Of a stretch of DNA of 64,000 nt, positions 17,914 through 50,276 are shown in pieces. This DNA comes from Fimicolochytrium jonesii (taxonomy: Eukaryota): positions 1 to 64,000 of the forward strand of contig NW_026515683.1 of assembly GCF_025526975.1 (NCBI RefSeq). The letters run 5' to 3'. The notes under the pieces are model-generated. The model ran no database searches. It was given only the letters and a program-made list of their open reading frames with translations, and was not told the DNA's origin. The position numbers were made by a program, and so were the translations under genes. How positions within the stretch are numbered: the stretch's first letter is position 1; each line of letters opens with the position of its first letter.

Positions 17914-18361
17914 CGCCCCTGGATCCCGCGAGGAGACAAGTGTGTTGTTCACGAGTTGCCCACGTGTGTGGCAGAGCCTGCAAGAGTTTCTGAAAACGTG
18001 CATGCTCCGGAATTACACAGTTCTCGTTCCTGTCGACGCTCTGGAGATGTCTTCCCATCGCCAACCGAACGAGCAGCGAGCAATTGGAATAACAAGGTCT
18101 ATAGTCTACATAAGCGAGTATCATAGCCAATCTTCGAAATTGTTGTGAAGATAGGAAGTGGGTCTAAGAATGAAGAAGCATTCAAGATTTGTCACCCCAT
18201 AACATGCGATTACAAAGGACAGTGCAAGTGTACGGATAATTCTCTCCATCTGCCCTGGCTCCTTCCGTCTCCTTCCGCCTCCACACCTCCCCCTCCCTCA
18301 CCCACTCACCCACCCACTCACTTACCCCCCCCCCCCCCCCCCCCCCCCACACACACACATA

Positions 18362-18486
18362 CAGTATGTGAACATAAACCTAGATACACCAGTGATTGAG
18401 TCAGTGTCCGTGCGCAACTGCGGCGGCTGGGGCAAGGGGCTGGCCAAGGCTCGGACGCGTGTATCCAGCTTTATGTTCACATACTG
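18362..18486. mobile_element. 125-bp Tc1/mariner-type MITE
   Basis: 28-bp TIRs CAGTATGTGAACATAAA(C/G)CT(A/G)GATACAC (26/28 match); TA on both flanks. Confidence 0.85.
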
Positions 18487-18603
18487 TACACTACACTGAC
18501 GCAACGCGCCCTCTCTCCGCCTGCCAGTCGAATCGGGTTCCTTCGTTACAGCACAATTGGGCTATGATATAGTTCATTTCACCCCCGTCCATATCCCACG
18601 CTG

Positions 18604-18924
18604 AGCCATGGCGGCCCGTCCCTTCCCCCACGAGGTTACGGTAGCTATTGGACGGCAGGCGGACTTAACGCGCGCTCGCTGGGACGGAGGAGGGGAGTGG
18701 ACGGAAGCAGCAAGGAATGGACGAGGAAGAAGAGGGGAGGACGCAGGCCGCCACTGCGAGACTTATTGAGAGCATCAATTGATAAACGAGTGAGAGGTGT
18801 TCGACTTGGCAAGAGCATCAATTGGAGACCGACTTTGCACATCACAGTACGATTCTCTTCGTCCACTCCAGTCCGGTAGTGCTGAAATCACGGAATCGGG
18901 GTGGAGTGGGTAATCGGGCATGGC
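18604..18924. repeat. Dispersed repeat copy B (with insertions relative to copy A)
   Basis: Same ordered blocks as 16118-16320. Confidence 0.85.
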
Positions 18925-19668
18925 TCGACCGGGCACAGGAAGAGGGAGGAGCTGGAGTGGTCACAGCGAACTAGATTCAGCCACTGTCTCAGAGCCGCAT
19001 CCACTCTACAGATACCGGAGTGGATGCTGTATATGTAGAGTGGTGATGGAGGTGACATCATGGAGTCAATCGTACCACAAATCATTGATGGTGCCTCAGT
19101 AAGGTGGGGGGCATTACAATCATCCTCCTACCGAGTAGGTGCCTCACAATTATCGCGTGCTGCCTCGGTTGGGCCTCTATTAGTGCCCGCCCTGTAGACT
19201 ACTGGCATAGTGGCGGGTAGGTCCGGAGTGACGATATACCCGGACCAGTAGCGCTACGGACCAGTCTTCGGACAACGGGGCTACGATTCCGAAGCCACAG
19301 CCGAGACTACTCGGGAATACTAGGTCCAAGTAACAGTAGTCCTTGGAGGGGGTTGCAAACAGGGCCGTGTCGGTTGCTGTCAAAGCACGGGGCTGAGTGG
19401 CTTGTTGTAACAAAGTAGACTCTGTTGATGATAAAGTACAAGAGGAAGAACGACTTCTGGGGAAATGCCTTTTAAACGGGAAGGAAGAAAAGATGAAGTT
19501 CGCAGTCACGTGCAGCGTCCCGTGACCTGGATCCTTCACACCCCCCCCAAAATCACAGCCGGCTTGATTTTCACAAGACGAGAGCGTGGGGTTGTGGGGT
19601 TGGGAGGGAGGGAGGGAGAAGTTTGTTGAGGGAAGCGGGAGGTGGTCCGTTGTGATCTATCTATGGTG

Positions 19669-22600
19669 TCATTGTTGGTCTCTTACGGGGATGGGGGTGC
19701 GGTGGATGGTCCGAAGGCCAATGGCGTTCTTGTACGCGAGGAAGGCGATGGAGTCGGCGATTACGTCCTCTTCTACCCAGTCCGCGGTATGGGGTGATTC
19801 GCCTGAGCGACGGGCGAGGTAGAGGCGACGGCGGCCGATGTCGCGGTGTCGCAAGATTTCTGCGAAGGGGTGATCATCGATGCTCTGTGTGTATTGCGGG
19901 ATGCGGGCGGTGTACAGCCGTAGGACGTCGACATGGAATACGGGATGTTGGCGCATCGTTGGGGGGAGTTGGAGTTTGAAGGTGAGGGGCTGTTCGCCGG
20001 GGTGCAGCATGGGAAAGGGTCCAAGCCAAGCTGGAAGGATTTTCAGGGCCGCTGATGGCAGGTCCTTATATTCCGGGATGTTGATCGCGCTGCGGTGAAC
20101 GAGAACGTGGGCGCCTTGTCGGATGCGAGGGTCGGCCGGGGCTCGTTTCATGTCGGCGTATCGGGCAAAGCGGTCCTGGGCGTTCTGGATGCGGATCTTG
20201 GCCAATCGTGCGACGTCCGCAAGGCGGTTCGCCCAAGCGGGACCGGGGTGTTCTTGTGGCGTCTGGGTGTGGAGCGTGTGCGGTTTCAGGGGGCTGTACC
20301 CCAGGTCGGCCTCAAATGGGGTCATCCCGGTAGATTGGTTCGTTGCGTCGTTGTAAGCGAATTCGATGGCCGAGAGGTACCGCGACCAGTTGCGTCCGGA
20401 GAGATCGGGGATGCAAGCGAGCATTTGTTTGATGGTGCCGATGGCTCGTTCCGTCTGTCCATCCGTTTGTTGGTGAGCGGTGGTGGCGATCGCGGTGCGG
20501 AAGCCCAAGTAGTCCGAAACGTTGAGCCAGAATTCGGAAGTGAAGCGGGAATCGTGGTCCGTGACGAGAGTCCTGGGGATACCATGCAATCGGATGATAT
20601 TGTCGACGAAGAGCTGCGCGGTTTGGGCGGCTGTGATGTCGCGACGGCACGGGGCTATGTGTACGCGTTTTGTGAGACGGTCAACCACAACCATGACCGC
20701 ATCGTTGCCATTGGCGTCGACGGGCATATAGGCGAAATCTAGGGTGACATCTGACCAGCGCATTGTGGGGATCGGTAGCGGCTGCGTCATTCCGGGCCTT
20801 TGTCGTCTGGTTTTCGCTCGGAGACAGGAGTCGCAAGTGCTGGTGTATCTCTTCACATCGCGCTCGAGGTTCCGCCAGTAGAATTGTCCACGGAGGCGCT
20901 CGTAAGTGTTGAACCACCCGGGGTGTCCGGCGGCCTCTGCGGTGTGCGAGTCGTGGAGTAGCTGGGTGCGTAGGGGGGAGTCGGGGATGTACAGCCGGTT
21001 GTCATAGAACAGGAGCCCGTTCGAGTAGCGGTGGCGCCGGGTGTGGACGGTCTGGGCTTCCGTGGGCTTGTCCATCGCTTTCAAGATTTCCATCGCGTAG
21101 CTGTCGCTCGTGGTCTGCGCTCGTACGACCTCTTCCAGTTCGTTTGTGTTTGCGAGGGCGACATTCACGTATACAACTCCGCGGCATTTGTGGCATCTGG
21201 GGGCATAGTCCGGTCGACGTGAGAGGAGGTCGGCGAGGGTGTTGTGGTTGCCGTTGACGTAGCCGATGGTAATCTGATGTTCTTGTAGAAGTTCCACCCA
21301 TGATGCCTGACGCCGGGATAGGTGCGGTTGGGAGCGAAGCCATGTGAGCGACTTGTGGTCGGTGAGGGCTGTGAACGGCCGCCCCCGTACGTATGGGGAG
21401 AAACATTTGACGGCTTCGACCAGAGCGAGGAGTTCGCGCTCATGTACTCCGTAGCGTGTTTGGTATGAAACGAGCTTGCGGGACCAGAAGGCCACCGGGC
21501 GGAGGGTCGGCAGAACATCTTCCCATTTCGCATTTGGGGGGATCTTGGGGCTCCCGGGTTTGGGCTGGAGTAAGCAGGCGCCCATTGCGTACCCGGATGC
21601 ATCGATGGTGACGAAGAGTTGAGCGGAGGGGTCGTACCACTGGAGGGTGGGGGCGGAGGTGACGGCGTCGCGTAGGGTGTTCCATGCCGCTTGTTCTGCG
21701 GTCCCCCAGGTGAACGGTCTGTTTTTCGCAAGGAGGTTGGACAGGGGGAGCGCAATCTCGGCGTACTTGGCGATGGATCCCGACAGGTAGTTCGTGAAGC
21801 CGAGGAAAGAGCGTACCTCGCCGCGGTCTGTGGGCTGGGGCCAGTCGACGACAGTGGCGATCTTCTCAGGGTCGAGCTTCAATCCGTCGTCTGATACTAC
21901 AAAGCCGCAGAAAAGGACCGATGCTGTGTAGAAGGCGCACTTCTTGAGGTTGATGTGCAACCCGTGAGCACGGAGGCGGCGAAGAACTTCCTTGAGGATG
22001 CGTCGATGCGTTTCGAGGTCGGAAGCGTAGATGAGTAGATCATCCATGTAGACGATCAATCCCTGGTCGAGCATGTCGGCGAAAATGTGATTCATGAGCT
22101 TGTTCCATGTCGCAGGCGCCGAGGTGAGGCCAAATGGCATGACCTTCCACTGGAAATGACCGAACCGGGTTCGGAAAGCCGTCTTGGGGATGTCATGCGG
22201 TGCAATGGGAATGCCGTAGTATGCGTCCGTGATGTCGAGTGTGGTAAAGTAGTTCGCGCCTTGGAGGCGGTCGCGCATCTCTACGAGGTGTGGCACCGGT
22301 GTGCGGTCGGGGATCGTCAGTTGGTTGATGGCGCGGTAGTCAATGCAAAATCGGAGGCCGCCGTCTTTCTTCTTCGCGAAAAGCACTGGCGCCCCCCATG
22401 GGGAGGAGGACGGCTCGATGTACCCTTTCCTCAGTAGGGTTTGAAGGCGCTCACGGAGCACGTCGAGTTCCGCGGCCGACATGTGGTATAGCCGCTGGTA
22501 GACTGGTTTAGCGCCGTCGCGCAACGGGATAGTGTGCTCGATTACCGGTTTCGGTTTGTCCGGGGGGTCTTTCACGGCCGCGATGTGTTCCTGGACGAGG

Positions 22601-23592
22601 TCGCGGACTTCATCGGGGATGTAGGTGAGGTCCGTCGGTGTAGGCTCCGTGGGTCGTGGGTTTGCGTGGGTTATATGGACTTGGGCAACGTTGTCGGGGT
22701 CCAGGGTGACTGAGCCGGCCGCTACGATTGCTCCGCCTTTCTTGACCAACCGGCGGAGTTGATGGCGGGAAATGGGGGTATCGGAGTCGTAGCCGGAGTC
22801 GTGTCCGTCTTCGGGGTGTGCTTTGGGTTTGGTGTGCGGTTTCCTCGGGATGGGGACGCCGGCGACGGCCGCGGTGGGGATGAGGTGTTCGTTGCCGCGG
22901 ATGTCTTTGAGTGCCAGTGAAATCGTTGGGCCAGCGGTTACGAAGGAAGGGCAATTGGCGACGAACCATGGCAGGCCGACAATGGCGTCGTAGCGTATTG
23001 GGGCCACAATCCATGGTAATCTTTCGTCGTAGTCGTTGAGCCGCAGGTCCGCCACAGTGTACTTGGACGATGTGCCCGAAGAGTCGCGGTCGGCGTATTC
23101 CAGGGTGATCTTTGTGGGGCGTAGGGTAAAGCCGTGTTTCCGAGCAAACTGGTCGTTGAGCACGTAGGTAGTGCAGCCGGTGTCCAGCAGGATTGTGGCG
23201 AGGACGCCATTGATAAAGCCGGTGACCGTGAGAGCCGCTTCAGCTATTGCTGGGCCCGTCGTTCGTTGGTGAGCGCGAAGCTCGGCAAGGAAGGTGCGGG
23301 GTTTCGGAGGTTCAGGGGTTGGGTCCGTGGGCGGTGGATGTCGTGCCATTAGGTCGGCCACGATGGTTTCAAGTATCTCGGAGGCTTCTGTTTGAAGACA
23401 TCGTGGGGCGGTGCACGCTGGGTATGCGTTCATGTCTGGGTAGTGCCGTCGCACGGGGTCCGGGGGTTTCGCTGGTTTGTCAGGTTCTTTCGGGGGTGCC
23501 GCAGGTGGGCTCAAAGGGGCTCGGTGGTTACCATCGGGAGGTCGACTTCGGTGGGAGAAGCCTGCAGAGTTCGTCGCACTCGCAGGCCTCAC
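19669..23592 (-). CDS. pol: Pol polyprotein (PR-RT-RH-IN plus divergent chromodomain-like tail), in the -1 frame relative to gag
   Basis: LLDTGC, YMDD, TIDASG, HHCC (H..GHPG..CDSC), DDE (TLDF, VTDHD, QTERA) and GPF motif. Confidence 0.95.
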   Translation of the reverse strand: MRPASATNSAGFSHRSRPPDGNHRAPLSPPAAPPKEPDKPAKPPDPVRRHYPDMNAYPACTAPRCLQTEASEILETIVADLMARHPPPTDPTPEPPKPRTFLAELRAHQRTTGPAIAEAALTVTGFINGVLATILLDTGCTTYVLNDQFARKHGFTLRPTKITLEYADRDSSGTSSKYTVADLRLNDYDERLPWIVAPIRYDAIVGLPWFVANCPSFVTAGPTISLALKDIRGNEHLIPTAAVAGVPIPRKPHTKPKAHPEDGHDSGYDSDTPISRHQLRRLVKKGGAIVAAGSVTLDPDNVAQVHITHANPRPTEPTPTDLTYIPDEVRDLVQEHIAAVKDPPDKPKPVIEHTIPLRDGAKPVYQRLYHMSAAELDVLRERLQTLLRKGYIEPSSSPWGAPVLFAKKKDGGLRFCIDYRAINQLTIPDRTPVPHLVEMRDRLQGANYFTTLDITDAYYGIPIAPHDIPKTAFRTRFGHFQWKVMPFGLTSAPATWNKLMNHIFADMLDQGLIVYMDDLLIYASDLETHRRILKEVLRRLRAHGLHINLKKCAFYTASVLFCGFVVSDDGLKLDPEKIATVVDWPQPTDRGEVRSFLGFTNYLSGSIAKYAEIALPLSNLLAKNRPFTWGTAEQAAWNTLRDAVTSAPTLQWYDPSAQLFVTIDASGYAMGACLLQPKPGSPKIPPNAKWEDVLPTLRPVAFWSRKLVSYQTRYGVHERELLALVEAVKCFSPYVRGRPFTALTDHKSLTWLRSQPHLSRRQASWVELLQEHQITIGYVNGNHNTLADLLSRRPDYAPRCHKCRGVVYVNVALANTNELEEVVRAQTTSDSYAMEILKAMDKPTEAQTVHTRRHRYSNGLLFYDNRLYIPDSPLRTQLLHDSHTAEAAGHPGWFNTYERLRGQFYWRNLERDVKRYTSTCDSCLRAKTRRQRPGMTQPLPIPTMRWSDVTLDFAYMPVDANGNDAVMVVVDRLTKRVHIAPCRRDITAAQTAQLFVDNIIRLHGIPRTLVTDHDSRFTSEFWLNVSDYLGFRTAIATTAHQQTDGQTERAIGTIKQMLACIPDLSGRNWSRYLSAIEFAYNDATNQSTGMTPFEADLGYSPLKPHTLHTQTPQEHPGPAWANRLADVARLAKIRIQNAQDRFARYADMKRAPADPRIRQGAHVLVHRSAINIPEYKDLPSAALKILPAWLGPFPMLHPGEQPLTFKLQLPPTMRQHPVFHVDVLRLYTARIPQYTQSIDDHPFAEILRHRDIGRRRLYLARRSGESPHTADWVEEDVIADSIAFLAYKNAIGLRTIHRTPIPVRDQQ

Positions 23593-25028
23593 TGAAAATC
23601 CCCTTGGGTGGGCTGGGGATCCTCGTCCTGGGGTTCGGTGGTGATAGCGTGGACACGAGCCTTGGGGTACTTAGGGCAGTCGCTTTGCATGTGGCCGGGT
23701 TGTCGACAACGGAAGCATGCGCCTTGGTCGCGGAGCCGCTGACGCTCGTCGTTCGTAAGCTTTTTCAGGCGCTTAGTCGCGGGGCCGGTGCCCACAACGT
23801 CGATGGCCGCGCGCTTGTTCGATGGGGGCCATTGTTTCGCGGGAGGTCTCTTGTTGGCTTCGTCACGTCGTGCGCTGTCGACTGAGTAGACGCTATCGGC
23901 CAGCGTGACGAGTTCCGCCAGGGACATCGTGAGGCTAGAGGGGTTGGCGGCAAGCAACCGTTGGATGCCGGGACGGAGGCCTTTGCGGAAGGCGCGGCAG
24001 GCCTGCTTGTCTGTCATCTCCGGGATTTCGAGGAGGAGTGCTGAGAACCTTTGGTAGTATTCGTCGACGGAGCCGGTCTGGGTGAGGCGTTCGAGGGCCA
24101 GGAGCGCGTGCTCTTCTGCGTTGGGTGGGATGAAGCGGTTGCGGAGCCGGTCTTTAAACGCTTCCCACGTAAGGATGGTGGATTCTTCTTGTTCGTACCA
24201 TCGCTCGGCGGTATCCTTGAGTTTAGAGGCGGCCAGCGAGATCTTCATGATATCCGGGACCGCCGGGGTTGCGGCGAAGTATCGGTCGAGGCGGGTCAGG
24301 AACTCGTTCGCGGATTTGGTCGACCGAGACATGCCGTCGAACGTAGCGAGGCCTTCGCGGAGAGACTTGGCGATTGGGCCCTCGGCGACGAAGTTGGTTG
24401 TGTCGCTGCGTTCTTGTAGCTCCGGCGGGGTGACCGGGGAGGGGAGATGGGATTGGGCGGGCGAGGCCAATGTGCGGTTTACAGGGCGGACGTTGCTGAA
24501 GGTAAAAGGAGAGCGGGGTGTGGGTTGCTGTTGGGTCTGCTGGATCTGCTGAGTAAGGAGACGTTCCAGGCGCTTGGTGTTGTCGTGAGATTCTTTCAGG
24601 AGGCGATGAAGGCTGGCCTGACGGGCGAGGAGCTCGGCTTTGTCGGCAGCGGCCTGCTCGCGGGTCTCGTTAACGACCTCGGCGAAGCTTGACTCCATTT
24701 TGGCCATGAGTTGGAGGAGGCCTTGGGGGCTGAGCTCTTCGTCGTCGCCGCTGTCCTCGTCTCCCTGCTCGTCTTGTTGTTGGTCTAGTTCGTCGGTGTG
24801 GGTCAGGGCGTGGGAACCTTGGCCGGCGTAGTGGTCGTCTGGGCTTTCTTCCTCATCGTTGTCGCGGTTGTCCTCGTCGTCGTCGCGGTTGTCGGCCCGA
24901 GCGCTGACTGGGGAGGCGGGAGGCTCGTCGTCGTTGTGGACAGGGCGGGTGTCGTCGGCGGAGCTCGGATTTTCAGACTCCGCTTGTTGCTGCGCTTTGG
25001 TCTTGGTCATCTTCGTGCGTTTGGTCAT
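23589..25028 (-). CDS. gag: Gag polyprotein
   Basis: Retrotransposon-gag core (LTQTGSVDEYYQRF) and zinc knuckle CFRCRQPGHMQSDC. Confidence 0.93.
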   Translation of the reverse strand: MTKRTKMTKTKAQQQAESENPSSADDTRPVHNDDEPPASPVSARADNRDDDEDNRDNDEEESPDDHYAGQGSHALTHTDELDQQQDEQGDEDSGDDEELSPQGLLQLMAKMESSFAEVVNETREQAAADKAELLARQASLHRLLKESHDNTKRLERLLTQQIQQTQQQPTPRSPFTFSNVRPVNRTLASPAQSHLPSPVTPPELQERSDTTNFVAEGPIAKSLREGLATFDGMSRSTKSANEFLTRLDRYFAATPAVPDIMKISLAASKLKDTAERWYEQEESTILTWEAFKDRLRNRFIPPNAEEHALLALERLTQTGSVDEYYQRFSALLLEIPEMTDKQACRAFRKGLRPGIQRLLAANPSSLTMSLAELVTLADSVYSVDSARRDEANKRPPAKQWPPSNKRAAIDVVGTGPATKRLKKLTNDERQRLRDQGACFRCRQPGHMQSDCPKYPKARVHAITTEPQDEDPQPTQGDFQ

Positions 25029-25743
25029 GGTGTTGGGCGGGAACCTTCCGATGGACTCTCAACAATCAAGGGGCTGCGTTGGCGGGGTCGTCGTCGTCGT
25101 TCTTGTTCGAAGAAGGGTGGTGCTACCATGTAACAAAGTAGACTCTGTTGATGATAAAGTACAAGAGGAAGAACGACTTCTGGGGAAATGCCTTTTAAAC
25201 GGGAAGGAAGAAAAGATGAAGTTCGCAGTCACGTGCAGCGTCCCGTGACCTGGATCCTTCACACTTGTCCTTGTTCGGGATCATGCGGCATCATGTCGCA
25301 GTGCGGCTTAATTATTGATAAGTTTGTTCAGCTTTTTGGCCTGCAAATTTTGCGATCTTTTTAATTACTGTAGGGTCGGCCTCACGAACCGCCTCAATTT
25401 CATGCCGGCTTGCCGCCGCCGACAGTTCCTGCTAGTCCTGCTTACACTAACTGCAGTTTTCGCCCTAGATCTAGAGACCGTTTTCGCCGCAGAAGAGGAG
25501 GTGCCGTACGTACTACTTTTACGCATACACTAGGTTGACGCTTCGCCGGCAGTCGTAGTTCCCGACGGAACACTTATCACTGTTGTAAGCCTTCTCAAGC
25601 CACGACGCGGGCGTTGTACACGGAAGAGGAAGGCCGGCGTACCGTCAGCTCATAATCAATAAGTATAATGGATAGGTCAAGCCGCAGGTGAGGGCGCAGG
25701 ACGGACTGAATCCTCGACTCTCGCTCATCGTTTTCTTTGGTCC

Positions 25744-28700
25744 TTGAGCTCATTCGCCCTTGTGTTTTATTTTTCCAGCGCATCCTTCCTTGGCGACCTC
25801 CAGCACGGCCCTATGAGCTTAACACCTTTCGAAGACCGGTCCCGGGCCATTCCGGACACGCAGAATGGAGCCCTCCTCGAACAAGCCAATGGGGCCATGC
25901 GAAATCTTGTCCAACTAGCGTCCGCCCCGACAGACTACTGGAAGACAATCTACTCCGACAAGACCGGGGCCACTGTTTCTTTGTCACCAAAGCAGAAAAA
26001 TCATATTCGGGTATTCAAAGGAGAGACGATGATCCACGGTTTTTCTCCCGAGGCGATTTTCGCTTTGATCAGAAATCGACGCTTGTGGGATGATTGGTAT
26101 CTGGACGGAAACACTGTGGAAGAGCTTAACGACAACACGTCCTTAACTTATATGGTCATGAAACCTCAAACTGCTCTATCGACTGTCGCGTCCACTCGCG
26201 ATCTTGCTTTGGTTGATCAGCGGACCCTTGATCCCGAAACTGGGGGGATCTATTACGCTAGCACATCCGTGGAGACTCCAAAGATACCCCCGAAAAAGAG
26301 CTACGTGCGCGTCGGCCTCAAACTCAATGCGTGGACTTTAGAGCCCAAGATGGCCTCTCACGGCTCTGTCAGCACACGGGTGGTATACTATCTACAAAGC
26401 GATGTCGGTGGTTTAATTCCCGGTGGGCTGGTTAAGAAATACCTGACCAAGCGCGCGATGGTAGTCGCAGGAATCGAGCAGTACCTCAGGAAGCACGGTG
26501 TACCGGAAATGAGCGCCAGTGACGCCGACGCGTTCAGGAAGCTGGCTCGATCATATTCCGTCAACAGCTCGATGCGCCCAAACTCGTTTGGGGAGCCCTA
26601 TGCCTCAGCGCAACCTGGACTAGAACACGCTCGTTACATACCCCAAACTGACATGTCTTTGCAGAGGTATGTTTCACTCGCTTACTTCTGAGTAACGCTT
26701 GCGAATCTCAATCTTTGTTCCATGCTCCAGGAACGTGCATCAGGCTCCGTTTTATAACATGCCGCAGGAACGTGTGGGCTCGAGGTACTCGCAGCATCTA
26801 GGCGCGGGTGTTGGCGCATATATCGCCTCCCGTACTTCGCTGGACGGCGATTTTCATGATGAATCTGATACGGAGACAATCGCTGAGAGCACTTTGAATG
26901 ACGAGGCGCGGGCCGTTGAAGCTCCGCGATCGATTACGCCGGAGATCCAAGAAGATGATTATTCCAAGACGACTAACCCTCATCACGCGGCAGCCGAAAA
27001 CGCTTTGCAACGGTCAATGGAACTGGAAGCCGACGATGCCGGGTTCGTTCTCCACTCGATCAACAACGGAGTGCGCATTTCCCAGAAAACGGTACCCGGA
27101 AAAACGATGCCTATTGTTCGTGGTGACGCTCAATTGGAGGGGGCTTACACCACCCAAGAAGTTTTGAGCGTCTTAAAAAGCGCCGCGGCAAGGAAGAGTT
27201 GGGATGCCCGTTTTGAAGACGGCAAACCACTTGCCCTCTATAATCTCGAGGAGATCCTCACTTATAGTCAGCAGAAGGGTACTTTCCCTGTGTCAGGTCG
27301 AGATTTTGTCACAACCAACTTGATACGCTTCGTCGGAGACACCATTTACTATGTTGCCACGAGCGTCGTCGAGCCTACGGCTCCTACCAATTCGAAATTG
27401 GTCAGAGCAGAGTTGCAAAACGCGACGTGGATCTTGAGGAGCACCCCCAATGGGGTGCAGGTGCACTACATTGTTGACGTGGACATCAAAGGCTCTGTTC
27501 CATCATGTGAGCTATTTAGTCCGCAACGCCCTGAATTCCGAAGTTCCGAAACTAATCAATTCCTTATCGCTGTAGCTATTGTGAAGGCCGTCTCGGTCCA
27601 AACACCCCTGTGCATTTTGGAAGTGAAGAAATACCTTGACGCCAATGGGCCGATACCATTCATTCCACGTAAGGTGGCCGGTGTTGATCCTGGTCGGCAC
27701 CTCCAAATCCGCCAGGAAAGCTATGACCCGAAGACGAGGTCCTACCACCTGGAGTACAAGAAGACCGACGAACACGGAAGCTCCGTATTTGTCTGCCTTT
27801 CGCAGAAGGCTTACAAGAATGGAGCCAAGGTGACCTTTTCTCCGAAGGAGGGTGCGATTGTGGAGAGGATCAACCCAAGTGGAATCAAGGGCATTAGCAC
27901 TGCCATCAGCGTGGATGCCAGTTTCCTGATCCGGATCACTGTCGAACGAAGCTCGGACGTGGACATCAGTTTCGCCGTTACCCAAGCCAGCTCAGGGGGG
28001 GTTGGATGGACCCTCAACGGCTGTCAGATGACTTTTGGTGAGACGAGAATTGCCCAACGATCTCCTGCAGCATCGCATCTCCAGCCCGCAGAGCGCAGAG
28101 CGACTGCGCCTGCCATTCCGGCAAGTATGGGTGCATCAGTGGCGCGCTCTGCAGAAATCGTCGACCAACCCATGCAAATCACACCGCCGGAGTCCCCGAA
28201 GGCGCAATTATCTGCGCCGAAGATCACATACGTTCCGCATCGGCACACTCAATCGGGCGTGAATGCCCTGAAGCACCTCAAAACGCTACTTGGTGACGAG
28301 GCCGCCTGGAAGTTCCACTCAGAGCAGCAAGGCATCAAAATCTCTACCATTGATGCTGGTGGCACTATGCCTGTTGTCCGCGGTGACGCCACTTTCCCTG
28401 CTGACATTACCGTCGACCAAATTCTCAATACAATTCGTTCCAGCGGAGCCAGAAAGATTTGTAAGTTGCTCGCAAGGACAACCGTATGGTCGCAATAGTA
28501 CGCATGCTAATCTGGGAATTTTATGTACCATTAGGGGACGCTCGCTTCGAGGGGGGTCGTATGGTGGAATGGTTGAATCCCAACGAAGCTCTGTATCACA
28601 CGATGCAAAAAGGCCAGTTCCCCGTGAGCGGCCGTGACCTTTCCGCTCTCAACGTCACCGTGTGCGACTCCCGATCGTCCACCACATACGTCGTTGCCAC

Positions 28701-29889
28701 AAGCGTCGTTGACCCCCTCGTGAAACCCGAACCCAAACGTGTCAGGGCGGAACTCAAGGTAGCTGGCTTCATCTGTAACGCCATACCACAGGGCGGCGCC
28801 CAGCTAAGCTACATCGTCGATATCGACGTCAAGGGATCTATCCCATCCGCCATCGTGAAAGCGGTATCGATTCAAACTCCTCTTTCTCTTCACGAGATCA
28901 TGAAGTACATTCAGACCTACGGATCACCTCCCTCAGTCAAGGTCCTTGGAAATACCGGGGAAGGCGTCAAGATTACCCTCGAGAGCGAAGAGTTTGAACC
29001 GAAAACTGGTGCTTATACTTTCGCTTACGCGGCAGCCGTGGACGGAGATGCGGCGCAGTCTCCAACTATGGCCGCTGGTCTCGTCGAAATCCAGGTTGAC
29101 CCCAAGACCTACCCGAACGGGTGTGATGTGTCGATCTCCCAGTCCGTTGCCTCCAAGTTCCTGCGGATTCGGAGCGCCGACCGCTGCATCCGGTTTTATT
29201 GTGAAGTCGACAATGTACGTCTGGCTGGGAACATCAAGATTGATGTTCAGCTGTCGAAGAAGAAGAGCGGGACTCCCGGGCAGCACACACTCAATGGCAT
29301 ACCGATCACTGCAGACAGCACTGCTCCCGCGACCGGCGGAAGTGCCGCGCCCGCAAAGCGTGCTCAAACCATCACCTCTGCCACCACTGCTGGCGTACCC
29401 ATGCTGGTAGCCCCTCCGCGCACTGTTCGCAAAGCACCAGTGCAAACCGCCACGCCTCCCAACGAACGTGCAGATGAGAAGGCTGCGAAACATGCGACCA
29501 CCGAAAGTGCGACCCTTTCTCCCAATATCACCACAAACCTGCCCCCTAGCGTCATGCGCTCGTCACCTCCAGTTGGCACGAATACTCAACCCTCCGGAGC
29601 GACTACCTATGTTCTAGCGTTCATATCTATGGTCCTTCGTTTGCTGCGACCCTTCTTGGCACCAGGTGCCGCCCCACTTGCAAGCGATGTCGATCCCTTG
29701 GACCTGCGCGCGCAAGTGGCTGGAGCGGATCCTCTTCGCTTGTTGGGACTCGTCGTCGTGAACATTGGAATCACGTTCTTTTCGATCAGATGGGCCGTCA
29801 ATGGACTCCTGCGAATTTGCTCACCCACTCAATGGGGCGTTCTGGTAACGCTCTCAGTGGCGGCGTACGCGTATACGAAGCGCGCATAG
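25744..29889 (+). CDS. Multi-exon protein with three START (lipid-transfer) domains and a hydrophobic C-terminus; 5' end uncertain
   Basis: Three repeats of W...R..WD..F..G...RD...TSV....P....VR....W/F.....YI..D.KGS.P; GT-AG introns near 26667, 27507 and 28461. Confidence 0.8.
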
Positions 29890-30594
29890 TGCAAGGGTTT
29901 CTTCAGTTTTCAACATTCAGTTTCAGTAGGACACTTCCGTTTCATTTGACTAATTCCGCTGACCGGCGTACTTGTTTAGACCTAGTAAATTCCCCCTAGT
30001 ATTAGAATTATTGTAGAGCTTTCCATCGTATAATCCTCAATATCATGCACAGTATTCATGTTTCGATCTGCTTTGCGGCGATTCTGCGTGCTCGAAGGTC
30101 AAACGGTCTCGACGGTAACTGTACCGTGTACGCTTTGGACGACTACATATACAATGCAGACTGCTACATGTACATAGTAGGTACAATGAAATGCGCGTGA
30201 GCGCGATGTGTGTGAGTCACACTGCGTTACTATAAGCGTTACTGGTCTTGCGTTACTGGCCTTCACAGTACACGCTTCCCATAGTACACCACATATGATC
30301 CCATATGAATGGACGCGTCAATGCGCGCAATTTAACAGAGAATTCGATTTTGATGATAACACTTAACAATTGATTAGGGCAATCGATTTTTCATTTTTTA
30401 AGGCAACAGATTAGCCTCATGATTAGCTTCCACACACTCCCCCAATTAAAGGATGTTATATATAAGACAGCCTGCAGACGCTCCCCCTCACGTTTCCCCT
30501 ATGCTTTCCACAGCACTTCTACGCCATCTTCAACACATCACACACACATCACACCGTCTCTCTTCTCTCCTTTGCAACGCCACGCACTGTAAGT

Positions 30595-30665
30595 AAGCTG
30601 AGGATTATTGTGTTTTTGAACCAGAAGGGCTGGAAAGCGTCGAAAAACGGCGTTATTCCCAGCTT
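30595..30665. repeat. 71-bp quasi-palindromic site 1 (5' UTR intron of cargo gene 1)
   Basis: AAGCTGAGG...TTTTTGAACC...CGTCGAAAAA...TCCCAGCTT. Confidence 0.9.
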
Positions 30666-30754
30666 GTCAGAGTTTTGACAGCTTGACTGACGTGACTGAC
30701 GTTTGTTCAAAAGTTTAGGTATACCAACACACCCTGCCCTCATCATAAGTGAGT

Positions 30755-31661
30755 ATGGCTTCTTCTTCTTCGGCAACGGGACGGGGACCCAACGACAACG
30801 GGGAGGGGGATATGGGGATGGCCATGTACAACCTGTCAGAAATGCACTGGCAGATGGGGCAGGAGGAGACGGAGACGACGATCGCCGTCTTCCGTTACCT
30901 CTGGAACCTCTATGACCCAGTGATTGTTACCCGCATGGTCGATGGCCACCAGGTCGAGTTTTACTGGTGGTCACTCAACCAATCGAGGCACATCAGGACG
31001 CTGCAGAGGCGTGCCCGCTCGGCGGCGGCCTTCCGCCTCTGTTGAGTGGATTCAGAGGCGCGCATCTACCACGAGGGGAAGCAGGTCAACGGGGTGATGC
31101 TGAGGAAGGATTGGGTCAGGGGTACGTATCTTCTCGACAAGCGGAGGATTAATGCGTTTTTCGACGTCCCCGGCGTGCGCGCGTTGAAAAATCGCATAAA
31201 CCTCAGCTTGTCTTTGTTTTGTTGCTGCGTTGAAGGGCAATAACAATAACCGTGTTCTTCTCTCAGATTGCTTGAGGATCCACCCATTGGACGCAGAGAG
31301 GCTGAGGGATTGGATGTTGCCAGCATGGGACGACACCGCACTATGGCCCCTTGGCCATCTCTGCAAAGGGGCCTCCGTTGCACACAGCATCCATCAGACA
31401 TGGGATGCTCCCGTCTTTCCGCCACCGCCAATCGGCCCAACCGCAACCGCCGCAGCCACCGCCCCCTCCCCAGGCGACTACCTCCAGCCATGGTTGTCCT
31501 TCCAGGACACGGTTGTTGAGGGAATGCGTAGCCCTTCGTCCGAGGTTATCAATGAGGCTGAGGACATCTTCGAAAATACGGAGCAGATGAAGGAATGGCC
31601 GAAGCAAATGGCCGAATACTATAGCTGGAAGAAAACCAAGGATGCTGAAGCCGATGAATAA
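30755..31661 (+). pseudogene. Cargo gene 1: unknown ~253-codon protein with one in-frame TGA (31043-31045)
   Basis: Exons 30755-31121 and 31267-31661 join in phase 1 (GT-AG intron 31122-31266). Probable 5' UTR intron 30589-30718; TATA near 30458. Confidence 0.6.
31139..31209. repeat. 71-bp site 2 (cargo gene 1 intron)
   Basis: AAGCGGAGG...TTTTTCGACG...CGTTGAAAAA...CCTCAGCTT. Confidence 0.92.
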
Positions 31662-31739
31662 TATGTTCCATATCATGCCATTTTTGAATATATTCTGATC
31701 TTTGGCCTCTTCTTTCCTTTTCTCAATTAACATCAGAAT

Positions 31740-34700
31740 ATGTTCAACCCACGACCCCCTGCACCGCCCGGTTCTGCCAGAAAACTGGCCTTGGATGCTC
31801 CACGCCGTCTTCCAAATCGCTCAAATAGCCCTGCATTAATTCCCCAATCTAGAATTGATAATGTCACAGGAACTTGGAAGGTGGGTTTTGAACAAGCTGA
31901 GAGAACCTTGATTTTCGCCGTCCCCGGTCTGGAGAGGGTTCAAAATGGCACTAATCTTCAGCTTGGTACGTCAGGTTGGTTATCCACCAAAGTCCACGTT
32001 CCCGAAGGCGCTGACTCTGCGACGAAGAAGGGGCGGATATCGGTTGGGCGAGTTGGCAGAGGCCGAGATCAAACACTATGCCCATACATACGGGTCGGTG
32101 ATCCTGAAGTCGTCCTTCAGGAAGTTGATAGAGGAGATCGACTATGAAGTGTCCCAGGCTCACAATCAGAGCATCACAACAACCCCGGGGGCGACACCGT
32201 TCTCTGAAAGGCATCGCTGGTACCAAGAGGCAGTCGATGCCCTCCAGGAGGCCGCTGAGACATACATCAGCGCCCTCTTCTCAGACTCCATCATGCAACA
32301 ATGGCATGCAAAGCGTCTGACTCTGAACAAGGACGACGTGAGTACTTGTTTGTCATTCAACGCATTCCAGTTACCCAAGCTGAAGATAACGCCGCTTTTG
32401 AAGTCTCCGGGGAGGGGGACGTTCAAAAAGCCATTAATCTTCAGCTTGGCTTGTGTTCCACACTGATTGATTCTCTTTTTGACAAATAGTTTCGGATGGT
32501 CCGGTACTTCCGGAAGCTGCTGAGTGCTTCGGAGCGGACCAATTACCGTAAACGTCAACATCTGATGGAATTGAAGAGGACCCAACAGGCGTGGACGAGG
32601 TTGTGGTCGTCGTCGTCATGGCCAAAGCCAAAGCCAAAAGCCTCGGCATCGACGTCGAAGCCGCTGAAGGCCATAGACCTTACGCTTGCTGAGGACAAAG
32701 CCGTGAAGGCAAAGAGGGAACGGGCACATAAGAGGGCTGAGGAAAAGAGGGAGGCTGCCAAAGGGGGGAAGGGGGAGGGCAGGGAGATCGATACCGACGA
32801 TGAACTGTCGGATGAGGTGAGTGGCCAAGAGAAAGTTTCTCATATCATGACACCAATACTGACTTTCTAGGAGGAGGGCGAACTTGGCGGACGAGAAGAC
32901 ACGCCGGACCTTGGGGAGTACGAGAAGGGGATGAATGCTCTCGGAAAAGGAGGGAAGGGGGACGGCAGTGTTATGAATGGGCGGAGCCGACGGAAATAGA
33001 GGCGACTTGTGGTGCAGGTTGTTGACAGGTAATGGTATTCAGACCGAAACAAGAACTAGAACAAGACTAGGAAGAACTGGTGTTGATCTGCTGGGGGATC
33101 AGGAAGTGGGGAGCTCAGGGGAGGCGGCTATTTATGCTTTTCTGGGAAGGCTGGGGAAGCGTGGGGAAGCAGAAGGGTACGGAATGAGAGGAAAGCCAAG
33201 AGAAGCGCCAAGGGTGGGGGAAGCATAGAAACAGAAGACTGGGGATGGGGTGGCTACGCTGAGGCTGTGGGCGGGTACGTGGGGAAGTATGGAGAAGGGT
33301 TTGTAAGCGCCGAGTGTTGGGAGGTGTGGCTACGTGCGGCTGCGTGGAGAAATGAAGGCAGTGGCAGGTGTGGGGTAGCGCGGCTGCGTGCGGCTGCGAG
33401 GTTTGGCAGATGTCAGGTTTTGACAGGGAATTGACATTGACTGACTGTTGGGATGCTGTCATGAGGTAAGCGCATGGTATGGACGCGTCGTCCATAACAT
33501 CACCCCCTCCTTTAGCCACGGCGTCCGGATGTTGTTTTGATGTTGGCAGGCTTTGGTCGGGGTTTGTCGGGGTACTTTTGGTGGAACTGGGCAACAAGCT
33601 CTTGACAGCGGGCAAGGTGTTCCACTGGCTCCCATGTATTCTCCGAGCTTGGCCAACCCTGCCACTTGATGAGGTACTGAAGGTGCGTGCGTCGAATACG
33701 GGAGTCAAGAATGTCTTCCACAATCCATTCCTCCTGTCCTTCAACTTCTTCTGGTGGGGTGGGTTCTGGCTCAGTTCGCTCCGGAATGGTGAAACGTGGT
33801 TCAAGAAGGGAGACATGGAAGACGTTGTGAATTTTGTAGGATGGGGGAAGCTTGAGGCGATATGTGACCAAGTTGATCTTCTCCGTGATTGTGAAGGGGC
33901 CAATCTTACGGTGATCAAGTTTCTGGGAAGGTCGGAGAGTCTTGAGATTCCGCTGTAAGAGCCAGACACTGTCCCCGGGTTTCATGTCTGGGCCAGGTGC
34001 CCTCTTAGCATCGGCAAAGCGCTTCATGCGTCCTTGGGCCTCCTTGAGCTCAGTGGCGAGCTGTTCATGGATTTCCTTGAGATGGTTGGCACGAGCTTCG
34101 GCTGCAGGATTAAGGGATTCGGTTGTGGTGGCGGAAGCCAGACTGAATCGAGGATGGAACCCATAGTTGGCGTAGAAGGGGGTTGTCTGGGTGGCGGAGT
34201 GGATGGTGTTATTGTAAGAGAACTCAGCAGAAGACAAGAGTTTTTTCCAGTTATCTTGTTGATAGTTGCAAAAGCAGCGAAGGTATTGCTCAAGAATCAT
34301 TGGTCCGCTCGGTTTGTCCATCGCTCTGGGGATGGAACGCCGATGAGAGGTTGACCTTGGTTCCCAGGAGAGCGAAGAGACGTTTCCAGAAGTGGGAGTT
34401 GAACTGTGGGCCACGGTCAGATACAATATCGTCGGGGAGTCCATGGAGCCGGATGACATGGTGCCAGATCAGATCTGCAGTTGACTCAGCGGTGGCAGTT
34501 TTCCTGCACGGTACAAAGTGCGCCATCTTGGTGAACCGGCAGATGACAACGAGCACAGAATCAACCCCATCACTGGCGGGTAGATCCGTGATGAAGTCCA
34601 TGGAAATTGACCCCCAGGGGCGGTCAGGGACCTGCAGGGGTTGGAGGAGTCCGTAGGGCTTGTGTCTGCTGGTCTTGGCTTGAGCACATACGTCGCAGGA

Positions 34701-37700
34701 CCTGATGTAGGACTTGACAAAACGCCACTGGCTAGGCCACCAGTAGTTGCGTGAGATGAGCTCCAGGGTCTTTGACATGCCGTAGTGTCCTGCCAAACGC
34801 GTGTCATGCATGTCCCGGCAGATCTCAGCACGGAGCTTGTTGGTGGGGACGTAGACAAGGTTGTCGTACAGCAGAACCCCATTTTCCTCGGAGAATCGCT
34901 TTATCCGTTCTTGGTCTTCTTGAGATTGCTGGGCAATGGGGGCCCTAAGCTGTCGCCGGATGGTTTGCGCAAACACATCGGATGCCAGGGCAGCTTTGAT
35001 TTGGTCAAGGAGCGAGGAGTCCAGTGGGGTCAGATAAGTGGCGGCCAGGCGGAGATGGTCAGGGGTGAGGATCGTGGTTTCCTGGGAGCGGAATGCTTCT
35101 TCCCCCTCCCTTAGCTCGTATTCAGAGCGACGAGAGAGGGCGTCAGCTTGGTGTTGCTGGGTACCAGGGCGGTATGTGATGACAAAGTCGAAATCAGCAA
35201 AGAAGATTGACCATTGGGATTGGCGGCGGTTGAGGGTACGGGTAGTCATGAAGTACTGGAGGTTCTTGTGGTCACAGTAAACGATGACCTTGTGGCGGGC
35301 ACCAATGAGGTGGTGTCGCCATTGAGCAAATGAGTCTTGGATAGCCAGGAGTTCCTTGTCGTAGATCTCATAGTTGATTTCCTCAGGAGTAAATTTGCGG
35401 GAGTGAAAGGCCACGGGGTGGAGTTGATCTGTGTCATCGGGTTGAAGGAGGACGGCGCCAAGGGCAAAGTCGGAGGCATCGGATTCGACAATGAAGGGCT
35501 TGTCAGGGTCGGGGTGAGTCAGGATAGGTGCGGAGGTGAAGGCTTTCTTGAGGGTTTCAAAAGCTAGGTGTGCAGCGTGGGTCCATTTGAATGGCAAGTC
35601 TTTGCGAGTGAGCGTGGTCAGGGGTGCAACGATCGCAGAGTACCCTTTGATGAATCGCCGGTAGAAGTTGGCAAAACCAAGGAAGCGCTGGATGCCTTTG
35701 ACATTCGTCGGGGGTTCCCATTCGGTAATGGCAGCCGTCTTCTTTGGGTCCATGGAAATGCCTTGCTGGGAGATGATAAACCCCAGGAACTCAACAGAGT
35801 CACGGTTGAATTCGACATTTTTCCGGTTTCGCATACAGCCCGTGCTGGCGGAGTCGTGAGAGCACCTCTCGGACGTGGTTGGGGTGGTCTTCTGGGTTTT
35901 TTGAGAAGATCAGAATGTCGTCAAGGTAGACCACAACAAAAACGTCGAGAATGTCACGGAATATGTCGTTCATGAGGTGTTGGAATACTCCAGGGGCATT
36001 GGTGAGCCCAAACAGCATGACATTATACTCGAATAGGCCGTAAGCGACATCGGAACGCTGTCTTCCATTCATCCCCTGGCCAGATCCGAAGAAGGTTGTA
36101 GGCTCCCCGGAGGTCAATCTTGGTGAGCCGGCGTGCCCCTCGAAGACGATCCATGATGCTGTTAATCAAGGGCAAGGGATAGCGATTCTTGATGGTGATA
36201 TTGTTGAGTCCACGATAGTCGACGCACAGACGGAGGGAACCGTCCTTTTTCTTGACAAAGAGGACTGGGGCACCGGCAGGAGACTTGGAGTGCTTGATGA
36301 ACCCCTTAGCTAGGTTCTCTTCAAGGTAGTCACAGAGTGCCTGCATTTCAGGCTCGCTGAGACTACAGATCGGGCCGAACGGTGGCTGTTTGCCCTCTTC
36401 TAAGTCGATGGGACAGTCGTAGGGTCGGTGCTCTGGGAGGGTATCCGCGTTCTTCTTGGCGAAGACGTCCGCAAAATCTTGGTATTCTTCAGGAATGATG
36501 GCCTTCGGATCTTTTGGAGGAGTGGTCGCCAGGGCTTGGGAATCTGACTTGGTCGGATTGGCGTAGGCAATGAATGCCTGGTCATGCCTTGCCGCCACAC
36601 GGAAAGCTGGGGCGCTGATAAACGATACGTGGATCGGTGTGGGTGCTGGGTCCAGTGTGTTGGGTGTCTGGGCTAGGGAGACTGAAATCTCGTCTTGATG
36701 GATACGGATCAGAGGTTCAGGGGATTCTTGAGGGCTTCGGGCTAGGTTCTGTTGGCAGGGCATCCCAGGAGGCGTATTGTCCAAAACCGCAATGGCAGCG
36801 GACGCAAAGAGTGCGAGTCTTCCAGTGTAGCTCCACATCATGGAGCTCAAACCAGGGAAGCCCCAGGATGATTGGCGCATGCGGGGAGCATGTCACATGG
36901 AATACCACCTCCTCAAAATGGTCGTTGACCCACATGCCCAAAGGTTGGGTGTGATGGGTAATGGAGCCCGCATGGCTGGGACGTCCGTCAACCAGTTCAA
37001 GCGCAATGGGGTCCTCCTTCTTGACAAGTGGGATGCGGTGCTTGCGGGCATAACTTTCGTCGATGAAGCACGACATCGCACCGGTGTCAAGTAGTGCTGA
37101 AAGCTGAACTGGAGCTCGCTGGGCCGATATCTGCAGGGTAACAGGGTACTCGAATGGTGAGGATGGGCCCAAAATCCGCATGGGTGAGGGTATCTCAGAT
37201 CGGAGATTGACATTGTTGGTGGTCAGGAGAAGGGTGTTGCTGGAGATGCCAGGATCGGAGCAAGGTTTTGTGGCTTCTCCCTTGGCAGTACTTGCGTGGT
37301 GAGAAGACCCGGGACAGGTGTTGCCCAGCTGCTCGGCCTTTACTGCAGCTGGACTCGGGCAAAATCCTGGATGGGTGCAGGTTCCTTAACCGCGACATTC
37401 GCCGTGCGTATCTTGTTTGGGCAGAGTTTGGCTATGTGGCCAGGTTTACCACAATAGAGGCAAAGTTTGTTTGTGATGCGGTGTTGGCGCTCTAGCGGTG
37501 TGAGGGGTCCTCGCGGACGAGCAGCGTCAATGACCATAGGGTCGTCTGGGCGGTTGTCGGGGCTCATGAGGGTGGGGCTAGTGGTAACTGGCACATATGG
37601 CTTTTGGTTCCTGCTTCGCTCTAGACGGCGCTCAAACAATTGGTTGTCACATTGGATGGCCTGTTCCATCACGGTGTCGATTGAGGCGGTAGGGGGCATC

Positions 37701-49838: not shown

Positions 49839-49909
49839 AAGCTGAGAATTATGCCAATTTTCAACGTTGCCTTGGACTTCTCGCCTGAAAACGCAGTAAC
49901 CCTCAGCTG
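49839..49909. repeat. 71-bp site 9 (5' UTR of recombinase)
   Basis: AAGCTGAGA...TTTTCAACG...CTGAAAA...CCTCAGCTG. Confidence 0.88.
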
Positions 49910-50276
49910 TACGAACGAATGCCGTCACCCGGCCTATGGTCACACGCATAACTAATCATTTCCATTGTACCCATGTATGGCAGAAATGCCCCATTGAGGG
50001 CATTTCCGTTTTCTATTAGTGCCGTACATAGTCATTTCCCAAGATACATAGGGGGGTCACGTGACTCGCGTTACTGGTCTAGTTCTCAGTAACGTGAACG
50101 CGTTACTGGCGTCACTGACCCGATAGGTACATACATACAGTACAGTACGTCACCAGTTTTCGTCAACGCGTCGGACTGCGCGTTGTGCCCAACCTCGAAG
50201 TTGAAACTCATGTCTTTTGTCCTCGAGATCGATGTTGCAGCTTTACAGAGCAAACTGTACCACTGTAGGACGCAAA

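Follow-up and report, generated by a model that had tools for sequence, protein, structure and literature searches.

A stretch of 64,000 nucleotides from the chytrid Fimicolochytrium jonesii (contig NW_026515683.1, positions 1 to 64,000, forward strand; assembly GCF_025526975.1; hereafter the window) carries a diverged histone H3 gene (the H3 variant) that lies between an open reading frame (ORF), ORF1, and a gene for a tyrosine recombinase with a GCR1_C domain. Sequence comparisons suggest that these three genes are likely part of a CryptonF transposon, in which an imperfect 71-bp palindrome (dyad) recurs nine times in predicted introns (Table 1).

Table 1. Features of the putative CryptonF element, numbered from the first letter of the window.
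Feature	Position	Strand	Remarks
Candidate left end	30236..30248	+	13-bp direct repeat shared with 50068-50080; inside GCGTTACT motif cluster
Dyad 1	30595..30665	.	Putative ORF1 5' untranslated region (UTR) intron 30589-30718, from splice signals
ORF1, ~250 amino acids	30755..31661	+	Predicted intron 31122-31266; premature stop 31043-31045
Dyad 2	31139..31209	.	ORF1 intron
H3 variant exon 1	31740..31880	+	47 codons, N-tail with ARK-like motif; predicted; annotated copies begin elsewhere
Dyad 3	31894..31964	.	H3 variant intron 1; right arm also in N-terminus of copy P0005
H3 variant exon 2	31975..32337	+	Remainder of tail, helix N, helix 1, loop 1 (+17 amino acids), helix 2, loop 2; from Pfam PF00125, PDB matches, alignment, and AlphaFold2 model of P0005
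Dyad 4	32377..32447	.	H3 variant intron 2; also in copy P0001, whose model reads through
H3 variant exon 3	32490..32816	+	Helix 3 (alignment and P0005 junction), then basic, partly helical extension and start of acidic patch
H3 variant exon 4, as far as Ty3 insertion	32871..32968	+	Acidic, then Gly-rich
Ty3/chromovirus long terminal repeat (LTR) retrotransposon in last exon of histone gene	32969..38848	-	531-bp LTRs with 3 mismatches; 5-bp duplication 32964-32968 / 38849-38853
Displaced histone gene end with earlier stop codon	38854..38890	+	
Dyad 5	38899..38969	.	Putative 3' UTR intron 38897-38999 between convergent histone and recombinase genes, from splice signals
CryptonF recombinase gene, 3' part	39147..41122	-	Exons 40981-41122, 39987-40836, 39147-39838; NDC10_II with catalytic motifs, then GCR1_C
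Dyad 6	39886..39956	.	Recombinase intron 39839-39986
Dyad 7	40861..40931	.	Recombinase intron 40837-40980
Second, older Ty3 in recombinase coding sequence	41128..48945	-	LTRs 95% alike over 280 nt; 5-bp duplication 41123-41127 / 48946-48950
CryptonF recombinase gene, 5' part	48946..49816	-	Exons 49223-49816 (premature stop, codon 174), 48946-49094
Dyad 8	49128..49198	.	Recombinase intron 49095-49222
Dyad 9	49839..49909	.	Putative recombinase 5' UTR intron 49824-49912, from splice signals
Candidate right end	50068..50080	+	Second copy of 13-bp repeat, part of short inverted repeat

The recombinase gene encodes the Pfam domains NDC10_II (PF16787, 68.6 bits) and GCR1_C (PF12550, 47.7 bits), both above cut-off. 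With the second Ty3 removed, its model comprises 808 codons in five exons, with codon 174 as the one internal stop; the product is ~28–30% identical to five relatives. The residues R, K, H-x-x-R, W/H, and Y, which we take to be catalytic, can be traced in the alignment: R, H-x-x-R, W, and Y align with every relative that covers them, and K aligns with four of the five. A 22-residue insert at 40760-40700 (reverse strand), basic and then acidic, occurs in none of the five relatives and echoes the basic and acidic extension of the histone described below. The combination of a tyrosine recombinase and GCR1_C is the architecture of CryptonF (PMC3212892; here and below, statements on cited papers refer to the portions of their text that were available). 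The element further resembles CryptonF in its catalytic motifs, in that no terminal inverted repeats (TIRs) or LTRs were found at its candidate ends, and in its candidate short direct end repeats, but the repeat is 13 bp here whereas known ones are 4–6 bp. The available text of PMC3212892 names a C48 peptidase and a Mariner fusion as extra genes and mentions neither histone cargo nor an internal array of dyads.

A shared word of at least 13 bp, as found at the candidate ends, arose in 10 of 2,000 Markov resamples. Five of the six copies of the GCGTTACT motif in the window are at these ends (30224-30259 and 50068-50109), and one GCGTTACT set forms an 8-bp inverted repeat with a 10-bp spacer that resembles a recombinase core site; the clusters could instead be host promoter motifs. 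No inverted repeat pair and no LTR was found at the element ends, no hAT domain was identified among the 48 ORFs scanned, and the Pfam scan revealed no viral genes flanking the histone gene. Between its candidate ends, and with the two insertions removed, the element is 6,137 bp long. It is flanked by the host gene Exo84 on the right and, on the left, by a host gene (25669-29886) with three START domains in a row. ORF1 has no Pfam match, and its best Atlas score (0.75) is not usable. We infer that the unit moves as one. The copy in the window has probably lost its mobility, with a stop codon and a Ty3 insertion in its recombinase gene and a stop in its ORF1. A third LTR of the family of the 32969-38848 retrotransposon was identified within the second Ty3 (43778-44371).

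The nine dyads are each exactly 71 bp long, align without gaps, and are spaced 444–987 bp apart in the element once the insertions are removed. Their scores on leave-one-out profiles range from 34 to 77 bits, while the best other site in the 64 kb scores 1.6 bits. Conservation is 84% in the outer arms, 87% in the T/A tracts, and 42% in the centre. Dyads were identified in six of the seven coding-region introns (three of three in the recombinase gene, two of three in the histone gene, and the single ORF1 intron) and in no coding exon; the three UTR introns that hold the remainder were delineated from splice signals alone, which makes their assignment partly circular. The first-pass annotation had described the histone as cargo, and for the copy in the window this is supported: the dyad is common to introns of the histone gene, ORF1, and the recombinase gene and occurs nowhere else in the window. 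The dyads in the histone introns are 61–74% like the family reference copy, a divergence that suggests long residence of the histone gene in the element. Parts of the same introns are read through in the models of two annotated copies, P0001 and P0005, suggesting that the dyads travel with the histone gene. Collectively, these observations suggest that ORF1, the histone gene, and the recombinase gene are linked by the dyads as a unit that has long co-evolved, and this link is the main support for the histone being cargo.

In the dyads, G-U outnumbers A-C by 19 to 13, which does not amount to a bias (p = 0.38). This suggests that the dyads are likelier to be DNA-binding sites than RNA hairpins, and hairpins are accordingly disfavoured. 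An origin as introner or miniature inverted-repeat transposable element (MITE) insertions was also rejected: the dyads have no target duplications, lie at variable distances (2 to 57 nt) from splice sites, and do not occur outside the element. Screening of positions 30200-33000 against Rfam yielded no matches. A strict dyad pattern had no matches in metagenomes, and a loose pattern matched 34 viral loci that all scored at or below -1.1 bits on the dyad profile, which indicates chance. The nine dyads are a finding of interest in their own right, as candidate Crypton cis sites.

The H3 variant gene is predicted to encode a product of 320 amino acids. Its three introns (31881-31974, 32338-32489, and 32817-32870; 94, 152, and 54 nt) have GT-AG ends exactly where the first-pass annotation had placed the junctions, and all six motifs quoted in that annotation are in the predicted product. 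The junction at 32338-32489 rebuilds helix 3 with D123, R128, and R131 and is the same in P0005. An N-terminal tail unrelated to H3 but bearing a SARKLA motif had also been described; it is present in the predicted product, but the exon that carries this motif (exon 1) is without homology support and has a weak donor. As predicted, the tail comprises 68 residues unlike H3 and has four lysines, one of them in an ARK-like context; apart from this single motif, the K4, K9, K27, and K36 contexts are gone.

Approximately 140 predicted residues follow the fold, and they are basic first and acidic after, as had been reported. In other respects this extension is less secure than first described: its frame is found in no annotated model, and the last nine residues of today's product derive from the LTR and replace 11 residues that are now at 38854-38890. 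The extension matches no Pfam family. The frame of the extension in exon 3 remained open in 109 of 5,000 shuffles, and all four visible differences between the window and P0005 are silent in it, against expectations of 31/67 for transitions and 17/21 for CpG-type changes. These results provide modest support for the frame, which depends on the predicted splicing. P0004 is letter-identical to exon 2 (120/120 residues) yet is spliced differently, and P0005 shifts frame past helix 3.

Exon 2 matches the Pfam Histone family (PF00125) at 48 bits (cut-off 26.4), and the 60 sequence matches listed of 164 in the PDB are all H3 or CenH3. The AlphaFold2 model of P0005 has helices at residues 36-47, 55-77, 94-123, and 129 onward, with a mean predicted local distance difference test (pLDDT) score of 73, and a structure search of the Atlas recovered H3 at template modelling (TM) scores of 0.63–0.66. 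Residues other than those of the P0005 model are numbered here after a canonical H3, P0007, to which the variant is 37% identical over residues 41-131. Relative to P0007, the variant has the replacements Q68R, F84W, and T107S, and 25 residues rather than 8 separate I74 from R83. The loss of Q68, the changes of F84 to W and T107 to S, and the lengthened loop 1, each noted in the first-pass annotation, are thus evident against P0007 and are common to all five rows of the family (the window, P0001, P0002, P0003, and P0005).

The better conserved a column, the more often the variant keeps it: retained are 19 of the 22 columns with at least 90% conservation, 14/34 at 70–90%, 2/17 at 50–70%, and 0/14 below this (p = 4e-8 for 19/22 versus 2/31 under 70%). 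In our trees, the stem of the H3-variant family comprises ~1.0–1.15 changes per site. Despite the length of this stem the most conserved columns were kept, which indicates, from sequence comparison, that the fold diverged under selection. A neutrally decaying pseudogene within canonical H3, which had been raised as a possibility, is not what this pattern suggests.

Residues on the DNA-facing surface have changed (T45E, L48E, R49A, Q55A, R63L, and R72E), and two of these changes are without parallel, with L48E found in 0/122 and R72E in 0/125 other matches. The fold has 13 K+R and 15 D+E, and a net-negative fold was observed in just 2 of 112 matches. Two of the lost arginines are still present in some sister copies, which suggests that the ancestral fold was nearer neutral. 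R83, H113, R116, T118, D123, and R131, which we take to make DNA and tetramer contacts in nucleosomes, are retained. In the H3-H3 four-helix bundle H113 and D123 are kept while C110 and A111 are both Q, and basic contacts of helix N and helix 1 are lost.

Pairing with H4 was modelled as a two-plus-two complex of P0005 residues 23-143 and H4, and it was predicted with an ipSAE of 0.80 versus 0.00 for the best control. The mark for pairing is reached by 51/78 solved and 2/108 mismatched pairs (71/105 and 2/126, respectively, for eukaryotes). Runs shared at least 56% of contacts, the partner had a pLDDT of 62, and the confident contacts fell in both helix 1 and helix 2 and at the end of loop 1. 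The H3 variant is thus predicted by modelling to pair with host H4. The first-pass annotation had called for such a dimer prediction and had named its absence as something that would refute the proposal; the pairing was predicted.

We tentatively interpret the gene as an element-encoded H3 that cannot be marked, binds DNA loosely, and serves self-directed anti-silencing, a reading that we consider plausible but somewhat short of probable; the steps beyond the sequence anatomy are ones that we infer. An element DNA-binding protein, perhaps the recombinase or the ORF1 product, would occupy the intronic dyads, and splicing would keep these dyads out of mRNAs. Dimers of the H3 variant and H4 would be loaded near the dyads, possibly aided by the basic/acidic extension. 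The resulting nucleosomes would hold DNA loosely and could take neither H3K9me3 nor H3K27me3, such that the chromatin of the element would stay open for transcription and excision and silencing would be escaped. Transposable elements of the chytrid Spizellomyces bear both H3K27me3 and H3K9me3 (10.1101/2025.03.17.643675). A functional analogy is provided by the VANDAL elements, where VANC21 binds to motifs that lie in non-coding sequence, introns included, of the transposon that encodes it, and lifts silencing (PMC5735166). In both cases element-specific motifs in introns and non-coding parts would be read by an element protein, a binding that is shown there and supposed here. VANDALs are plant Mutator-like elements with short tandem motifs and no histone, and we do not claim homology. 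If the variant does shield the element, it would represent a transposon that turns a core histone of its own against silencing, and it would be a compact tool for establishing which H3 features silencing needs.

The first-pass annotation had proposed either a non-silenceable histone or a decoy. Both fit three observations: the K4/K9/K27/K36 contexts have been lost, the fold has become acidic, and the H4 surface is retained. As a decoy acting in trans, the variant would remain largely off DNA and soak up H4, chaperones, or, via its ARK-like motif, K9/K27 methyltransferases; desilencing would be broad, and the dyads would be recombinase accessory sites for the excision complex. We regard this as rather unlikely. 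The six retained residues (R83, H113, R116, T118, D123, and R131), with their presumed DNA and tetramer contacts, argue against a protein that stays off DNA, the ARK-like motif is in an exon without homology support, and a global sink would presumably hurt the host. Conversely, retention of the H4 surface while the DNA face was acidified, the replacement of C110 and A111 by Q, and the long acidic patch are all consistent with a decoy, and single H3-like proteins encoded by viruses are believed to act on the chromatin of their hosts (PMC9145170). Those viral proteins likewise represent one H3-like histone of a selfish element that needs host H4, but they are 73–85% identical to host-type H3 and keep most mark sites, whereas the variant does neither and has no flanking viral genes.

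The first-pass annotation had also treated the altered residues and the long loop 1 as the usual criteria of CenH3, as they are printed in PMC4359364 and 10.1101/706580, although the third site is printed as 118 in PMC4359364 and T118 is retained in the variant. All four features are indeed present in the five copies but do not make the gene a CenH3, given that its identity is even across groups and that a CenH3-type tail is absent. They also occur together in 27 of 126 other, mostly unnamed, matches, and a loop 1 of at least 25 residues occurs in 7 of 127. The three residue losses carry little weight where 63% of fold positions differ from H3. As a caution, the features of the usual CenH3 checklist are found here in what is almost certainly not the CenH3 of the host.

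To place the variant among H3-type proteins, an alignment was compiled from 154 proteins, less 20 tandem, fused, or duplicate sequences and four without anchor, supplemented by the H3 portion of P0007 and by the row for the window (132 rows). Canonical and CenH3 groups were mostly assigned from sequence features; of 10 rows checked, four carried names, two of which were cnp1 or cse4. With groups so assigned and 87 columns compared, the variant has a mean identity of 39.7% with 10 canonical-type rows, 38.7% with 17 fungal CenH3-type rows, and 41.0% with six plant-type rows. The 17 fungal CenH3-type rows average 79% identity to H3, versus 37% for the variant. Nine columns set the fungal CenH3-type rows apart from H3; among these, the variant agrees with CenH3 at two, with H3 at two, and with neither at five. 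The large tree comprised 123 rows, and a careful tree comprised 38 chosen rows and 87 columns, with P0001 omitted. Approximately unbiased (AU) tests on the 38 rows gave p-values of 0.20 for a fungal CenH3-type, 0.31 for a canonical, 0.53 for a plant-type, and 0.39 for an all-CenH3-type grouping; pairing with the Piromyces CenH3-type protein alone was marginally rejected (p = 0.045). The tree neighbour of the family is the unnamed P0060, possibly through long-branch pull. By identity, the protein nearest to the family is P0081, a divergent H3-like sequence with a similar helix-3 end.

A phylogeny against the H3 and CenH3 of the host had been suggested; run with the grouped rows, it does not place the family. 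Collectively, these results reject neither a CenH3 nor a canonical ancestry, and W84, which is present in 17/17 fungal CenH3-type rows, slightly favours CenH3. The proposal of a CenH3 mimic appears weak, as the variant sides with CenH3 at two of nine columns, the AU tests reject neither origin, and the hydrophobic tail is absent. That tail is the hydrophobic C-terminal patch that binds Mif2/CENP-C (PMC13079627), and the CenH3-type proteins of Piromyces and Smittium end in a short hydrophobic tail of this kind. Such a tail is in no annotated model of the variant, and under the predicted splicing the window protein runs ~140 residues further. At helix 2 positions 87/90/95/96, which would correspond to the Scm3/HJURP recognition residues MMAS of Cse4 if its W178 is equated with position 84, the variant reads E/D/A/A. 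An E at position 87 was seen in 19 of 127 matches as well. With the CENP-C tail absent and the gene multi-copy and decaying, a CenH3 function is, on sequence grounds, unlikely.

That the variant is the host's own centromeric histone we consider highly improbable. The gene has the standard features (PMC4359364, 10.1101/706580), but there are at least five copies decaying by CpG change, a retrotransposon sits in the last exon, the gene sits in a recombinase element, and its 37% identity to H3 is far from the 79% average of the 17 fungal CenH3-type rows. The first-pass annotation had allowed that it might be the host's sole CenH3, and a multi-copy, decaying gene does not have this character.

A selfish mini-centromere is a further, improbable, explanation. 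An Ndc10-family protein would bind the dyads, load a CenH3-like histone, and partition the excised circle in the manner of a CBF3/Cse4 point centromere or the 2-micron STB locus. The four CenH3 features with W84, the neighbouring NDC10_II and GCR1_C gene, and the fixed length of the dyads point in this direction, as do the derivation of Ndc10 from CryptonF (PMC3212892) and the reported presence of Cse4 at the 2-micron STB locus (PMC2064333). Set against these are the lack of the Mif2/CENP-C hydrophobic patch (PMC13079627), with a predicted 140-residue extension in its place; E and D at the positions aligned to Cse4 M181 and M184, under the same derived numbering; the fungal CenH3 state at only two of nine discriminating columns; and the marginal rejection of the Piromyces pairing (p-AU 0.045). 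Moreover, neither a replication origin nor a long-lived circle is described for Cryptons in the portions of the Crypton literature consulted. A 2-micron origin of point centromeres was rejected in PMC13017519, a paper in which the word 'crypton' is absent; this is neutral for the mini-centromere. The likeness to CenH3/CENP-A with CBF3/Ndc10 includes the longer loop 1, the replaced Q68/F84/T107, the unrelated N-tail, and a neighbouring gene from the source family of Ndc10; the differences are that the variant is multi-copy and mobile, has no CENP-C tail, has an acidic helix N and helix 1, and is not grouped securely with CenH3 in the trees. Catalytic residues are kept in the recombinase here and are lost in Ndc10 (PMC3212892).

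More broadly, a Crypton might carry its own chromatin kit, in which the Ndc10-family recombinase would read the nine dyads, load the H3 variant of the element, and build private chromatin both on the element and on the circle that it forms on excision, possibly including a centromere-like site for partition. We hold this as a speculative and quite unlikely extension. If true, it would be a mobile counterpart of Ndc10-Cse4 point-centromere logic within the ancestral transposon family of Ndc10. The locus offers a live case for asking how proteins of the Ndc10 family began to act together with H3 variants.

A search for relatives near the length of the variant recovered three proteins from 53 candidates, at 92–93% identity and all from F. 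jonesii, and their clusters comprise five records on five contigs (the five annotated copies). Beyond P0002, the next matches among 1.84 billion representatives are generic H3 and CenH3-like proteins with no more than 45% identity over the fold. None of 1,033 candidates is a longer relative of the fold, and no relatives of the variant were found in 26 viral-contig stretches or 87 metagenome contigs. Amino-acid differences between the copies are enriched in single CpG-type transitions (8 of 18 distinct differences versus 60 of 715 possible; p = 8e-5), and a ninth site reads Q, W, or R, which would fit two deaminations on opposite strands. CpG-type change of this kind between copies is the decay mode of methylated repeats, and in Spizellomyces 5-methylcytosine is confined to transposons (PMC12695648). 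Bulk CpG in the element is slightly depleted (0.80–1.02 versus 1.02–1.11 in host genes), a difference to which we give no weight. The present copies of the H3 variant look like decaying relics.

The decay of the copies bears on whether the gene is a passenger, that is, a captured H3 or CenH3 that was amplified with the transposon to no benefit and whose fold came under selection earlier, while it was still a variant of the host. The CpG-type non-synonymous differences between the copies fit such a history, as does the capture of H3 by hAT elements in Dothideomycetes, where the captured genes are mostly inactivated (PMC3538342, PMC6710886). Nevertheless, the histone introns hold old, diverged copies of the dyad of the element, no non-mobile relative above ~45% fold identity was found among the 1.84 billion representatives, and a stem of ~1 change per site with an intact core is not neutral decay. 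We regard a passenger as not very likely, on a par with a decoy.

Several observations weigh against the anti-silencing reading that we prefer. Since the copies decay by CpG change, any anti-silencing has failed for them, and the H3 captured by hAT elements in other fungi is without shown function in the available text of PMC6710886. An acidic fold would suit a soluble H4 sink as well as it would a nucleosome. The H4 score may reflect memory of solved H3-H4 structures and indicates likeness rather than binding; it was obtained with a copy, P0005, that has a private change at the R116 position and with an H4 that is not from the host, and the residues of the H3-H3 bundle, where C110Q and A111Q are found, are outside the confident contacts. 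No annotated model matches the full 320-residue product or keeps its extension frame. Finally, linkage of histone and recombinase was observed in the window copy only; what is visible of the other copies is the histone gene with portions of its introns and of exon 3. A search of proteins of at least 497 amino acids yielded five distant relatives of the recombinase, none from F. jonesii. Viral contigs contained no recombinase loci, and none of 10 guessed exact single-exon recombinase products was found in the protein collection. This absence of sibling recombinases, in a search that covered those proteins and 10 guessed exact sequences, is weak evidence against linkage.

Among fungal DNA transposons, H3 capture has already been published for hAT elements, whose three genes are organized in a similar way (PMC3538342, PMC6710886). 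The H3L genes transduplicated by hAT in Pyrenophora tritici-repentis and the Mycosphaerellaceae are, as here, in multi-copy fungal DNA transposons of ~6 kb with three genes: a mobility enzyme, an ORF of unknown function, and an H3-like protein that is neither H3 nor CenH3. The present element differs in having a tyrosine recombinase rather than a hAT transposase, in that TIRs were not found, and in that its histone is far more diverged (37% identity to H3) with its core kept. It also differs in its introns, which copies in P. fijiensis are without, in its predicted 140-residue extension, and in the intronic dyads that it shares with the recombinase gene. Our literature search, which drew largely on main texts that need no subscription, turned up no description of a Crypton carrying a histone or intronic dyads, and the words 'histone' and 'palindrom' are absent from the available text of a 2026 paper on fungal Cryptons (PMC13465315). 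Histones described previously as captured by fungal transposons are near-canonical and have no shown use. Here, ~1 change per site with the core kept, together with an array of dyads common with the recombinase gene, points to a co-evolved function in the element.

Other mobile sequences were identified elsewhere in the window. Nested copia elements at ~4816-10900 are accompanied by an ORF of ankyrin-type repeats with an 87-bp unit (11149-11958). A Tc1/mariner-type element (14184-16004) has 32-bp TIRs, TA flanks, and an ORF with DDE_3 and helix-turn-helix domains, and a MITE-like element of 129 bp (18360-18488) has 30-bp arms that start like the Tc1 TIR. A Cys-rich ORF with no Pfam match (16708-17670) lies between two partial direct-repeat pairs (16098-18903), possibly as another mobile unit. 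Finally, a Ty3 element at 19406-25264 has identical and very short LTRs (136 bp) and a long open pol frame, which suggest that it inserted recently.

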